Assembly: GCF_056746865.1 (NCBI RefSeq)
Contig: NZ_CM163382.1
Strand: one strand, 5' to 3'
Length of the DNA: 64,000 nucleotides
The position numbers are program-made. Below, piece by piece: positions 12,001 through 51,000 of the stretch; the stretch's first letter is position 1, and each line of letters opens with the position of its first letter.

Positions 12001-15000
12001 ATGCGGCATACAGCTTCGCCATTAGTTCCGCTGCAATTTCGGTCGCCTGGTAGTCGCCGTGCTCGGCAACGATGTGAGAGAGCATTCGCTCCCCGGCATA
12101 TTCGAGCAACATCAGATTGTTCTCACGACCGAGCAACCGGACTGCTCCCCTCCCATTGCGCCATACCAGATAGTCGGCCCCGCGCAGTTCATCAGCAATG
12201 TCTTCTATAGGTTTCAATCCCTTGACGATTGCAGGAGTCCCGTCTGGCAATGAAACTTTCCAAACGAGGCTGGAAAAGGTGTCCGCAATGAGAACAGGTT
12301 GCGAAACGTGCCAATGAGCAGGAAAAACAGGCGGCATGAACATCAACCCCAAGTCAGAGGGTCCAATCGCAGATAGAAGGCAAGGCGTTCGCGGTCGGGG
12401 GCTTCGATCCCCAATACATTGAATAGGACAGCGAAGGCGCGCTCTGCTTCATCTGGCGCTGCCCAGTTCTCTTCGGCGTTAGCAATCATGAGTGCCAAAT
12501 CGGCATAGCGATCTGCTGTTCCGAGCCGCCCAAGGTCGATCAGACCCGTGCATTGAAGAGTTTTAGGGTCCACCATGAAGTTCGGCATGCAGGGATCACC
12601 ATGGCAAACAACCATATCGGTGCGCTCTTGGTCGAGCCGCACCGGTAGCTCTCGTTCGACACGAGCCAAAAGATCGAGCTGCGGCGTACTCTTGTCCTCG
12701 TCCGGTAAGAAGTCGGGATTGACGGCATTGCGGGACACCACATCAACGGCGCGTCCGAACATTCGCGACAGCCTGCGCTCAAACGGACATTGATCAACCG
12801 ATAGGCTGTGAACAGCGCCAAGTTGCTGCCCCATTGACGGCCACGCTTTGAGCAAATCCGCTCCAGACAGATCAGCCGCCGGTACTCCCGGAATTGCCGT
12901 TATCACCAAGCATGCACCCTCCTGTTCCTCCTGCCAGTTGATGACCTCGGGGCAAGCCACACCTCGACCTTTGAGCCAAATGAGGCGGTCACGCTCTCCA
13001 GCGAGCTCACCGCGGCGGGAAGCAGGTGCGATTTTCGCGAAGGCATGCCCGTCACCACGTCGAAAAACAAAATCACCAGATTCTCCGCCTCTGACAGGCA
13101 ACCAGTCAGAATGCGATTCACCAAAAAAAATATTAGTTCGATTCAATGGAGGTTCCTTCAGTTTTCTGATGAAGCGCGAATATAGAGAAATATCCCGAAT
13201 GTGCAGTTAACGAATTCTTGCGGTTTCTTTCAGCGCCGCCAATACCGCCAGCCCGTCGCGCAAGGGGCGCGGCTCGTGTGTGCGGATGAAGTCAGCTCCA
13301 CCTGCGGCGGCGGCAAGCTCTGCAGCGAGTGTCGCGGCCCCGACATCCCCCGGACCACGGCCTGTGAGCGCGCGCAGAAAGGATTTGCGCGAAACAGACA
13401 GAAGCACCGGCAAATCGAAGCGCAGCCGCAATTCATCGAACCGCGCCAGCACCGAGAGCGAGGTTTCGGGAGCAGCCCCCAGAAAAAACCCCATGCCGGG
13501 ATCAAGGACAAGGCGGTTGCGTTTGATACCGGCTCCCGTCAGCGCCGCGATGCGCGCGTCAAAGAACGCCGCAATGTGATCCATGATGTCGCCAGCGGGT
13601 GCCTCGCGCCGATCTGCCTGCCCGTCTTGCACCGAATGCATAACGACGAGTTTGGCAGATGATTTCGCCAATTGCGGATAGAACGCAGCGTCTGGAAAAC
13701 CGCGAATATCATTGAGATAGGCCACACCACGCGACAAGGCATAGGCTTGCGTCGCGGGTTGATAACTGTCGAGCGAGACGGGAATGCCATCTGCCTTGAG
13801 CGCGTCCAGCACCGGCGCGATACGCGCGATTTCTGTGTCGGACGAAACAGGCGCGGCGTCGGGATTGCTGGATGCCGGACCGAGGTCGATCACATCTGCC
13901 CCCTCGGCCATCAGCTTACGCGCCTGCGCAATGGCTGCGTCTGGCGCCAGATACCGGCCTCCATCGGAGAAACTGTCCGAGGTTATGTTGACGATGCCGA
14001 AAATGATGAGCGATTTATTCATGGGGGCTTCTATAATAATAATAATCGAGCATGAGTCTCATACGGATGCTCGGGTCGAAAGGGAATCCCCAGGCGAGTA
14101 ACCTGTTTGCGGTGATCCATTAGCTGCAGGAGCAGAATAGCATACATCTGGAAGCAAAGCCAGGAAAGCGGCCTATGGAGCTGTGCGGCAGCGCTCAGTA
14201 GGCAATTTTTCAAAATATTGTTAAGCCTTTTCTGAGCATGGTATTTTTCATGGTATTACCAATTAGCAGGAAAATAAGCCATTGAATATAAAAGATAAAA
14301 ATGTCTTGTTTACAATAGAGTGGGTTTCCGGTGCTCCTTTGACACTCTCTCCATATCCCTCAGGTCCGGCACCAACAGATACCACGTTATTTTCTCCCGA
14401 CACCTGTGAGCCATGGCCCAGAGCTACAGAGCCTGAAGAATTTTCTATTCCAGCCCATCCCCCAATAGCAACACTCTGCTGTGAATTAAGTACCTCAGCG
14501 CTCTTACCTATGGCAACACCATATTTTGACTCAGCCTGACCGGCATCCCTTCCCAGGGTGACACTGTGTGGAGAATTATACACTCCCGAAAAAGAGCCAA
14601 ACTGAAGACTTCCTGGTGAATCCATGTTAAAAGCGCCACCTCCCAAAAGGAAAGTGTTATTAGCTGTACCAGTTGAATTCGTAATAAAAGAGTTTTCTCC
14701 AATCAGTAAGCTGGAAGAATTAGCATCAACAGGCCCTGTCAAAACAGCCTGAGCCTGAGCCGAGAGCAGCAGGGCCACACTCACTGCCAGCGCGCTTTTC
14801 TTTAAAAAAGCATCACGTCTTTTAAGCATTCTGTTATTCTCCTGTATTATTACTTCACCAGCCAGAACGGTAGTGCGGAGCAAAAATACAGTGATAAGAA
14901 TCCTCTTTTATTAATTTAATAATGCCAGGAATATTATTGTGTATAATATGCGACCTCAATTTAAGCAGCAGAAAACGACTGGCATTAAAATCATTAAATT

Positions 15001-48000: not shown

Positions 48001-51000
48001 TATTGCTGCATCCGTCTGCGCCCTGTTCTTCACAAGCACATCGCTGAGATGTTCTGCCTGGCTTTTCGCTTCTTTACGGACATCCCGTACACTTTTATCT
48101 GTATAAGCCCGGGAAACCTGAACTGTTTCATCCGCTTTTTCTTTTATTTCATCCTGAAGAGCAAGAGAAGATGCATCCGTATACGCCACCGCTGCCGATG
48201 TGCCTGCAATAATATCCCTGCTGAGTTCATCACGTACTGCTGTAACCTGACTGTCAGTATGAGCACGGGCATCTCTGTATACACCGCCTATCTCACCACG
48301 CAGACTGTCTCCCTCTGCCTTCAGTTCATCACGTACTGCTGTGACCTGACTGTCAGTATGAGCACGGGCATCTCTGTATACACCACCTATCTCACCACGC
48401 AGACTGTCTCCCTCTGCCTTCAGTTCATCACGTACTGCTGTGACCTGACTGTCAGTATGAGCACGGGCATCTCTGTATACACCACCTATCTCACCACGCA
48501 GACTGTCTCCCTCTGCCTTCAGTTCATCACGTACTGCTGTGACCTGACTGTCAGTATGAGCACGGGCATCTCTGTATACACCGCCTATCTCACCACGCAG
48601 ACTGTCTCCCTCTGCCTTCAGTTCATCACGTACTGCTGTGACCTGACTGTCAGTATGAGCACGGGCATCTCTGTATACACCACCTATCTCACCACGCAGA
48701 CTGTCTCCCTCTGCCTTCAGTTCATCACGTACTGCTGTGACCTGACTGTCAGTATGAGCACGGGCATCTCTGTATACACCACCTATCTCACCGCGCAGGG
48801 CATCCCCCGACACCCGTACAGCATCTGCAATGGCGTTGTCCATCTGTCCTTTTGTGGCCGCATCACTATCCTTAACACCATCTGAAACATTTATAATCCG
48901 GCGGGTTTCCGGTGCTCCTTTGACACTCTCTCCATATCCCTCAGGCCCGGCACCAACAGATACCACGTTATTTTCTCCCGACACCTGTGAGCCATGGCCC
49001 AGAGCTACAGAACTGGTAGAATCCTGCACAGATGAAAACGCACCAATTGCCGAGCTCTGACGAGAAGAAATAAGTGACGCTGCTTTTCCTGCAACAGTCC
49101 CCCATTCAGAGTCAGCAATAAGTGCATCATGCCCCAGACTCACACTTCCCGGAGAGCTCACAACACCAGAATTATTCCCCAAAAGCACACTACCGTTTGA
49201 ATCTAATAAAAAAGAATTATCACCCACCAACCATACATTTCTTATGTCACCAGACGAACGGCCAGCTACTGAATCCCCAACAAGAAAGCTACTATGTTCG
49301 CCAGGTTGAATCGGTCCGATTAAAATAGCCTGAGCCTGAGCCTGAGCCTGAGCTGAGAGCAGCAGGGCCATACTCACTGCCAGCGCGCTTTTCTTTAAAA
49401 AAGCATCACGTCTTTTAAGCATTCTGTTATTCTCCTGTATTATTACTTCACCAGCCAGAACTGTAGTGCGGAGCAAAAATACAGTGATAAGAATCCTCTT
49501 TTATTAATTTAATAATGCCGGGAATATTATTGTGTATAATATGCGCCCTCAATTTAAGCAGCAGAAAAGCAATGACGAGAAAATCATTAAAATACATAAA
49601 GATAAAACATCACAACTATAATTATAATAAGCGCACTTATTTTAGCATCTGAACATTTAAAGTACTGCTATCACAAAACAATAAAAATCCTGGGTAATAT
49701 CTCTGATGATTGAATGAGAAATTCACGATGTCTGGTGAGAATTCTGTTCAAAACGAGGAATGCAGACGTACATGTGGCAGGCATGGACTTCCACCGATTT
49801 AACTTTTTTCCTTCCTTGTATTTACACATCACACATTTTGCGCTACAAAAATTTCACGTGGCACGCACCACGTGATCCGTAGAAAAGCCTCTTGTTACGA
49901 ATTTCGTAAACCGCACGTCTGTCTGGTCGTGCGGATTTTTTATCCGTCAACTTCACATGAAACCCGCCAGAGCACTGTTTCCGGATTCAGACATCAGGCA
50001 TATTATCATCCACAATGTCGTGAACAAGATCACACTTTTGCAATTCCTTTATTGATCGAAAGCAGTTAATCACGGAAATTAATTACCGGAGTGAAAGCAT
50101 TTGCTATGTAAACATTCCCAGAAGACATCTTCATGTTGAATATGACACCCTTATTGACTACACCCCTCTGACAGAATTTTCAGAGGGGTTTTTTTATCAG
50201 TTTCACCATCCAACCCTGTACGCCAGAATGGTTTCACTGTCACTCAGTTCTGCTATTGCCTTTTTCATCTCCCTTTACCTTACGTTCTGCCAGAGTCTGA
50301 GCCATTTGAACAGGAGGTTATCATTGATATCGTGTTCCCGGGCAATACGGGCAACAGAGGCTCCTGGTTGCAAAACCAGTTTAACCATTTGAAGTTTAAC
50401 TCATTTGAAAATGATCTGCGGGGTTCTGCGGATAATGTTTTTGCTCCATAACAGGCGTCCACCAGTTTTGATACCACAGTTGAACGATAAACAGAAACCT
50501 GCTGATAAAACACCGTGGCGACATGACAAAACGCCAGAGCAAAAACCGTAAGCGCATTATTCGTCTTGTGGAACTCTGGCCTGAGTCATTCAACCGGGAA
50601 AAAAACAAAACCACTTAAAGTGGGGATACCTGACGACCTGATACAGGATATCGCCATCCGAGAACTGGCGTTTGGCGCTGGTACATTACATGCAGCAGTG
50701 GCGTCTTATGTGCAGTCTCCGCGCTATTACCGTGCGTTAATAGCAGGTGGCGCCCGTTACAACCTGAACGGTCAGCCGTGCGGGGAAGTGACACCACAGG
50801 AACAGAAAGAGGCAGAGACCCGTTTAATGATGCTGAATGACCGACGAAAAGCCAGAAAACCTCGTTGACTGCACAACTGCGCTGATTCACTGAGCTGTAA
50901 TCAATGTACAGCGCTGTACCGGACGATGGGTAATGGCGATCACAACCGGTAACCCCAGAGACAATGCGACTGTTTTTAACGCAACATACTGGCCAGATGT

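Follow-up and report, generated by a model that had tools for sequence, protein, structure and literature searches.

The 64,000-nucleotide stretch of Escherichia coli DNA analysed here (NCBI RefSeq assembly GCF_056746865.1, contig NZ_CM163382.1; the whole stretch is referred to as the window) contains two direct repeats of 1.4 kb, copies A and B, each of which carries the 5′ end of a gene for a YadA-like trimeric autotransporter adhesin together with the DNA upstream of it. The two copies are alleles of one island locus that carry different head cassettes, and are not local duplicates. We consider it probable (about 0.75) that some 35-36.5 kb of an island encoding a serine protease autotransporter of Enterobacteriaceae (SPATE) recombined into a resistance island, which brought the two adhesin alleles 33 kb apart. 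The open reading frames (ORFs), insertion sequences (ISs) and joints on which the argument turns are the following.

14263-14829, minus strand: truncated adhesin ORF of 188 aa, comprising signal peptide, A-type head and partial neck
14322-14324: junction of the resistance segment with the adhesin gene, a 3-bp overlap with no IS end
14322-15715, minus strand: repeat copy A, consisting of the 5′ 507 nt of the A-type YadA-like adhesin gene, about 0.86 kb upstream and the inner end of an IS66-family tnpA remnant
15680-15856, minus strand: hybrid IS66-family tnpA remnant, a 58-aa ORF composed of ISEc23 TnpA residues 1-56 and adhesin-upstream DNA
15702-15715, minus strand: left recombination joint, a 14-bp sequence (TTCAAATGGCTCAG) common to the native tnpA remnant and ISEc23 tnpA
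15716-50851 at minimum, possibly reaching 52177: SPATE-island segment, probably imported, delimited by identity to the AR_0085-type island
47656-49422, minus strand: intact B-type gene, predicted to encode a YadA-like trimeric autotransporter adhesin of 588 aa if read from ATG 49422; the mechanical ORF reaches TTG 49476
48125-48897, minus strand: tandem 99-nt (33-aa) stalk repeats, about eight DNA periods, with diverged first and last units (73% and 77%)
48903-50310, minus strand: repeat copy B, consisting of the 5′ end of the B-type gene, the upstream region and the inner end of the native tnpA remnant
50311-50468, minus strand: native-type IS66-family tnpA remnant, as found upstream of the adhesin in all other genomes examined
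50852-52177: right-hand switch zone in shared island backbone
52178-64000: backbone of the resistance island (13P484A/Sanji type), into which an IS5 has inserted
59497-60691: IS5 of 1195 bp with a duplicated TTAG target; the 13P484A island lacks it but is otherwise identical

The repeats as alleles of an adhesin locus

Comparison of the window with itself by blastn recovered two collinear direct matches (14746-15833 with 49339-50427, 91.3% over 1090 nt, E=0; 14309-14441 with 48890-49022, 92.5%), and the sole other long repeat in the 64 kb was the 99-nt tandem array. The first-pass annotation had described near-identical repeats in the same orientation, with one adhesin paralogue truncated. The repeats are real, share one orientation and end at structural breakpoints, as homology between A and B breaks off against the sul2 segment at precisely 14322, and 15715 marks the recombination joint just as exactly. 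They are separated by a 33.2-kb spacer (15716-48902), giving a repeat unit of 34.6 kb. The description of the copies as near-identical was wrong: global alignment of 14322-15715 with 48903-50310 gave 83.3% identity overall, arranged as a mosaic that ranges from 51.5% to about 99%.

14322-14425: copies A and B about 99% identical
14426-14776 (counterpart 49007-49369), minus strand: head cassette, 51.5% nucleotide identity
14777-14965: 97.9%
14966-15084 (counterpart 49559-49677): promoter-proximal block of 119 bp, 67.2%, with about 98% identical DNA on either side
15085-15715: 97.6%

The longest exact run shared by the copies is 175 bp, and further runs measure 121, 97 and 93 bp. Beyond 15715 and 50310, similarity of about 65-70% runs on to approximately 15873 and 50465, because both sides are IS66-family tnpA sequences of different types. 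Duplication of a single locus by the assembler, which the first-pass annotation had named as the finding that would overturn it, is excluded by the 51.5% head block.

On the minus strand, the repeated unit proceeds from the inner end of the tnpA remnant through the upstream region of about 0.85 kb into the 5′ end of the gene. A composite transposon or another IS-bounded unit would be built differently: apart from the adhesin 5′ end and the DNA upstream of it, the repeat holds nothing but a dead tnpA remnant. Neither repeat end carries an intact IS, and a target-site duplication was found neither at 14322 nor at 50310/50468.

The external alleles that the two copies match are different ones, and the term paralogue is therefore not borne out. 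Copy A shows no differences from strain 13P484A (locus L001) over 14150-15715, and the sole difference between copy B and strain AR_0085 over 48903-50310 is a 6-nt (Ala-Gln) repeat indel at 49330. An intact A-type allele was identified in strain GF4 (L009 8146-9504, 452 aa), with 99.5% identity over the A-specific block; its neighbours are IS421 and a sigma-factor-like regulator on one side and a tnpA remnant, a transketolase remnant, IS1 and the ProQ/FinO gene on the other. According to protein alignment, the A- and B-type adhesins are nearly identical in signal peptide, neck, distal stalk and anchor, and differ in the head (residues ~30-135) and in the number of stalk repeats. Based on these alignments, the repeats are best described as part of a modular locus, with its head cassette in the 51.5% block and its conserved arms in the near-identical blocks. 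Public proteins display at least three head types between invariant arms, and the A and B heads occur in all four possible combinations (4/4) with the first stalk modules VKDSD and INNTD, which requires recombination at the conserved neck. Modular alleles of trimeric autotransporters are represented by the UspA1/UspA2 cassettes of Moraxella and by repeat-number variants of Eib and Saa in E. coli. The present locus is like them in its swappable head cassettes between conserved arms, its variable stalk-repeat number and its YadA anchor.

Duplication of the adhesin 5′ region in situ, followed by divergence and truncation of one paralogue, would account for the same orientation and the shared end-points of the copies. 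We regard this origin as extremely improbable, since the divergence is not uniform (blocks of 97.6-99% beside one of 51.5%), the two copies have their essentially exact matches in separate outside lineages, 230 genomes have the sul2-truncated copy by itself, and the flanks show replacement and not duplication.

Parental islands, joints and proposed formation of the composite

The flanks of the window belong to a known resistance island. Nucleotides 1-15715 differ from 13P484A at three positions (99.98%), and in that strain the matching stretch holds the dGTPase gene, a pap remnant, ΔISCR2, floR, tet(A), strAB, sul2 and the truncated adhesin. On the right, L001 is matched without a difference over 50470-51010 and 52178-59496, and with a single mismatch, at 63.75-64.0 kb, over 60691-64000. 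Genomes with 100% matches include Sanji, HB-Coli0, CRE1540, H8, MRY15-117 and 14EC017. The 8.9-kb cluster in the same backbone, 99.98% collinear with L001, identifies these flanks as the Sanji-type chromosomal resistance island. In E. coli ST167 Sanji, an 8.9-kb sul2-strAB-tetRA-floR cluster was described inside a 69.2-kb chromosomal insertion, and the cluster was also reported in HB-Coli0, CRE1540, H8, MRY15-117, 14EC017 and WCHEC4533 (Zeng et al, PMC6392093). The word “autotransporter” has 0 occurrences in the sections of that paper covered here, which make no mention of the truncated adhesin (PMC6392093), and this description of the Sanji resistance cluster was the only literature found in relation to the truncated adhesin or the composite. 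The window shares with the Sanji island its left 15.7 kb and right 11.8 kb, the resistance gene order and the truncated adhesin ORF. However, it contains about 35-36.5 kb of SPATE-island DNA where the Sanji type has a transketolase-remnant/IS1 block, and it also has the hybrid tnpA remnant and the extra IS5.

The interior derives from a different island. Over 15702-40000, identity is 100.0% to AR_0085, PK8276, 23CRST013, CS5L, CFSAN061770 and EF5-18-41, and in comparison with AR_0085 there are two mismatches in 15683-23351 (7.7 kb) and two in 34259-44694 (10.4 kb). The SPATE islands of AR_0085, PK8276, HCM-27C-1 and ECCNB12-2 (in the last at tRNA-Sec/selC) have the same gene content and order from the ISEc23 end to the adhesin, at 99.8-100%. 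In contrast to the window, these genomes carry a full ISEc23 and PTS (phosphotransferase system)/lsr genes or a tellurite island to the left of the SPATE gene, and they lack the resistance cluster and a second adhesin fragment. Unlike AR_0085, the window has IS2 in the regulator, IS421 in reversed orientation and six rather than five stalk repeats.

At the left joint, column-by-column comparison showed that copy A equals L001 up to 15715 and the ISEc23 of AR_0085 from 15716, with a native-type base at 15701. The shared identity is extended to 28 bp (15688-15715) if one mismatch is allowed, and the joint sits inside about 190 bp of IS66-family tnpA sequence that is about 65-70% similar. The native remnant type lies upstream of the adhesin in L001, AR_0085, HCM-27C-1, ECCNB12-2 and copy B, and in AR_0085 a full ISEc23, interrupted by ISCro1, is located directly beyond the SPATE gene. 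The junction of copy A with the SPATE side was not recovered elsewhere: none of the 5,426 complete E. coli genomes in our collection covers at least 80% of 13900-16300, the exact 52-nt joint pattern had 0 matches in metagenome contigs, and an exact-protein lookup of the 58-aa hybrid ORF returned no record.

At the other end, the native remnant at 50311-50468 runs straight to a ProQ/FinO gene fragment (50566-50868, plus strand) without the transketolase-remnant/IS1 block, whereas in L001 the native tnpA remnant is followed by the transketolase remnant and IS1 (block L001 16916-18596) and only then by ProQ/FinO. The backbone at the right switch is identical or about 92% similar over more than 1.7 kb. 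All 103 mismatches to L001 in this zone fall within 51011-52177, a third allele, different from that of either parental type, with YagK/YfjJ-like and helix-turn-helix genes. The breakpoints are resolved to 14 bp on the left and to about 1.3 kb on the right. As a side observation, ECCNB12-2 (L006 1960-7215) has a complete LacI/PTS IIABC/transketolase operon between the tnpA remnant and ProQ. Judged from these sequences this state appears ancestral; 13P484A and GF4, with the transketolase remnant and IS1, seem to represent a first reduction, and copy B and AR_0085, where the operon is entirely gone, a further one.

The proposed course of events is as follows. The ΔrepC-sul2-strAB-tetA-floR cluster, derived from RSF1010 and ISCR2, would first have replaced everything 3′ of adhesin codon ~169. 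Subsequently, about 35-36.5 kb of a SPATE island would have replaced at least 1.7 kb of the resistance island. The right exchange would be ordinary homologous recombination in the kilobases of shared backbone, at 50.85-52.18 kb, and at the left exchange the 14-bp identity would join the resident tnpA remnant to the ISEc23 beyond the donor SPATE gene. The recipient would keep its truncated allele and gain the intact allele of the donor, yielding direct repeats spaced by 33 kb; both alleles would be kept because the left joint lies on the far side of the donor's own adhesin locus. A single event, anchored by homology and joined by microhomology, is the simplest reading on grounds of parsimony, and by the same argument we infer that the resistance island was the recipient. 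The transketolase-remnant/IS1 block is retained in the L001 type and also lies alongside the intact adhesins of GF4 and HCM-27C-1, but the window lacks it; the L001 arrangement therefore cannot have arisen from that of the window by deletion. That the event was recent is indicated by its antibiotic-era cargo and by the almost complete lack of divergence from either parental type.

Homology-facilitated illegitimate recombination, in which a one-sided homologous anchor is combined with a microhomology joint, is known from transformation of Acinetobacter and Streptococcus pneumoniae. The window presents the same pattern, with extended homology at the right end, 14 bp at the left end and a net gain of tens of kilobases of non-homologous DNA. 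It differs in that the host is E. coli and in that the microhomology is placed inside a homeologous stretch of about 190 bp, so that mismatch-tolerant homeologous recombination is an alternative description of the left joint.

Several points weigh against the import of a SPATE-island segment as outlined. The exact donor is absent from the collection: searches with 50300-52700 and 50950-52300 gave no match above 98.4%, the third allele at 51011-52177 included, and the right end may stem from a mosaic donor or a second event. RecA-dependent exchange usually needs more than the 14 bp of the left joint (28 bp with one mismatch), and a less common mechanism is therefore required there. Finally, the contiguity of the parts rests on the assembled contig.

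Two further explanations concern the same joints. Instead of foreign import, two islands resident at separate sites of one genome may have recombined with each other. ECCNB12-2 has its resistance island at 4.52 Mb and its SPATE island at tRNA-Sec (5.17-5.24 Mb), and PKF4 has both islands in the same orientation about 112 kb apart; both types therefore co-occur in one cell, and identical joints would result from exchange between them. This intragenomic route is nevertheless rather unlikely, as after one inversion or deletion the right side would still consist of SPATE-island backbone, whereas the backbone from 52178 is identical to the resistance-island type and only 87-92% identical to that of AR_0085; a second exchange would still be needed, and the arrangements in ECCNB12-2 and PKF4 do not yield the gene order of the window in one step.

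Alternatively, the contig may be a chimera in which two separate islands of one genome were misjoined at shared sequence. Genomes hold related islands at a median of 2-3 places each (backbones of the 51011-52177 type at a median of two), which provides repeats able to confuse assemblers, and no other genome has the junction. We find such an artefact quite improbable, because normal assemblers would not be misled by as little as 14-28 bp of identity amid DNA of about 65-70% similarity, the error would have to occur twice independently, and the contig crosses IS1, IS2, IS421, IS5 and the 99-nt tandem array, implying long-read support. Two other candidates were rejected. Rolling-circle capture of the cluster and adhesin fragment by ISCR2 is at odds with flanks (1-5363 and 52178 onward) that are also of the resistance-island type, and for integrase-mediated tandem accretion there is no att site or integrase at either joint.

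The adhesin genes and their surroundings

As the first-pass annotation had proposed, copy B heads a full-length adhesin gene. Its 588-aa product is predicted to be a YadA-like trimeric autotransporter adhesin (type Vc), based on a C-terminal anchor at residues 530-588 (Pfam YadA_anchor PF03895, E=4.2e-16; YadA anchor in PDB 2lme, E=2.5e-17). The NCBIfam match to the YadA C-terminal region (E=6.9e-19) was under the curated cut-off, and in the passenger the Pfam match to YadA_stalk was weak (E=0.0018) and that to YadA_head not significant (E=0.35). The protein also has an N-terminal signal-like sequence and 33-aa repeats consistent with a coiled stalk, and its relatives are annotated as “YadA-like family protein”. 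Six complete identical 33-aa units are present in the window, five in AR_0085 and ECCNB12-2, and two in GF4. Public protein records of the family are mostly “partial” and end inside the 33-aa repeat region, where the breaks are perhaps the ends of short-read assemblies. Relatives are also labelled “immunoglobulin-binding protein” by their source annotation; a search of PDB sequences with the copy B adhesin returned no Eib chain at E<=0.01.

Copy A had been reported as cut at about 190 codons by the abutting resistance module. The truncation holds for the 188-aa ORF, but only about 169 of its residues are adhesin (to ...GAPET in the conserved neck), and the remaining 19 come from sul2-upstream DNA. 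The fragment has neither stalk nor anchor and represents a gene remnant; because these parts are missing, the ORF is predicted to be incapable of acting as a functional trimeric autotransporter. An NCBIfam search with it gave zero matches. The corresponding cluster of identical proteins (P0001) is annotated as “Tat pathway signal sequence protein” or hypothetical, and the ORF so named beside sul2 in 230 complete genomes is an adhesin-gene remnant. The exact sul2-adhesin junction is found in these 230 of the 5,426 complete genomes, and matches to generic sul2 contexts, including plasmids with annotated repC (IncQ), end at 14324-14328.

The genes of the resistance cluster were called from window ORFs and from the annotation of the collinear loci L001 (13P484A) and L005.

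5364-14324: resistance cluster of about 8.96 kb, beginning with ΔISCR2 and a DUF3363 gene
7158-8372, plus strand: floR, followed by a LysR fragment and ΔISCR2
8972-10246, minus strand: tet(A)
10250-10927, plus strand: tetR
11507-12352, minus strand: strB
12343-13146, minus strand: strA
13207-14022, minus strand: sul2, followed by an RSF1010-type ΔrepC tail to 14324

About 20 kb of DNA of the chromosomal resistance-island type is also carried by the conjugative IncI-gamma/K1 NDM-5 plasmid pNDM5_LS003 (NZ_OP290546.1, 13584-34734). This DNA includes the dGTPase gene, pap regulators, floR, the truncated A-type adhesin and island backbone; it lacks tet(A), strAB and sul2, and floR directly adjoins the adhesin fragment. 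It is possible that this plasmid is a vehicle for island DNA between strains.

The SPATE-island segment contains the following features, in order.

From 15716: 5′ end of ISEc23 and an ISKpn37 remnant
16254-20129, minus strand: SPATE gene
20441-22000, minus strand: AbgT transporter gene, followed by ROK/GDPD/ABC transporter genes
29630-30154, plus strand: sodC, followed by LysR and ankyrin genes
34066-41182, plus strand: fdrA/DUF1116/permease/carbamate kinase cluster, followed by IS remnants
At the right end: a regulator disrupted by IS2, then IS421 and the intact adhesin gene together with the DNA upstream of it

The SPATE protein (1291 aa) is of class 2 and nearest to Hbp/Tsh (PDB 1wxr, E=0, residues 53-830), and is shorter than Hbp; its gene is always paired with an AbgT-family transporter gene. 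Beside the intact adhesin, a sigma-factor-like helix-turn-helix regulator (44454-46245) is split by IS2 (44695-46025), and the same regulator is intact in AR_0085, GF4, HCM-27C-1 and ECCNB12-2. IS421 (46263-47633) shares its site with AR_0085 in the opposite orientation and has the orientation seen in GF4.

Sequence motifs around the 5′ ends of the two alleles were also inspected. An in-frame (GCTCAG)n tract, encoding (Ala-Gln)n at the end of the signal peptide (49330-49360 and 14750-14770), comprises two Ala-Gln pairs in the A type, four in copy B of the window and five in AR_0085. The single sigma-70-like match (49653-49624) falls inside the 67%-identity block, so that the alleles may be differently regulated. 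Three GATC sites are kept in the upstream region (15281, 15435 and 15461 in copy A; 49874, 50028 and 50054 in copy B), one of which adjoins a palindrome with a 9-bp stem (TCACGTGGTGCGTGCCACGTGA); Dam-dependent or other regulation of the adhesin through these conserved sites is possible. An Rfam scan of the conserved upstream region (49300-50600) gave sub-threshold chance matches only, and a promoter/terminator scan found none above shuffled expectation, hairpins excepted.

Further rearrangement and the meaning of the composite

The three near-identical blocks, above all the 620 bp at 97.6% identity with exact runs of up to 175 bp, should be adequate substrates for RecA-dependent deletion or for amplification by unequal exchange, and RecA-dependent deletion or tandem amplification of the 34.6-kb unit is a plausible prediction for this locus. 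With a deletion between A and B, the SPATE gene, sodC and the fdrA cluster would be lost, and the one intact adhesin would be deprived of its stalk and anchor, leaving a truncated adhesin gene. When the deletion product was sought with a synthetic query (14100-15715 joined to 50311-51000), the 40 matches listed were all of the 13P484A type, with the two query pieces joined across the 1.6-kb transketolase-remnant/IS1 insertion; this search discriminates weakly, as the joining rule of the tool merges pieces across an insertion.

Exchange between the copies would have a different outcome. The head cassette of copy A is flanked by its own conserved arms (about 109 bp at about 99% and 189 bp at 97.9%), and head exchange does exist at the population level. 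Neither copy, however, contains conversion tracts relative to the external alleles (13P484A, AR_0085), and the locus does not conform to silent-cassette antigenic variation of the pilE/pilS kind. It is very doubtful that copy A acts as a pilS-like cis donor that switches the head of adhesin B, or that the repeats drive reversible amplification and loss under selection. If true, the former would give the intact adhesin, which lies 34.6 kb away, another binding or antigenic specificity, and the latter would affect the SPATE, adhesin and sodC block.

The finding itself is an ordinary one, a new instance of mosaic island formation in which a known resistance island is joined to a virulence island. 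Repeats of this kind should not be read as local duplications, and the arrangement offers a potential, though unproven, route to losing or amplifying the virulence block. On the preferred reading, that SPATE-island DNA recombined into the resistance island, 14 bp of identity beside a long homologous anchor would have sufficed for the fusion. What results is a base-resolved fusion of a chromosomal multidrug-resistance island with a virulence island that encodes a class-2 SPATE, an intact trimeric adhesin and sodC, and resistance and virulence genes can now be co-inherited and co-transferred.

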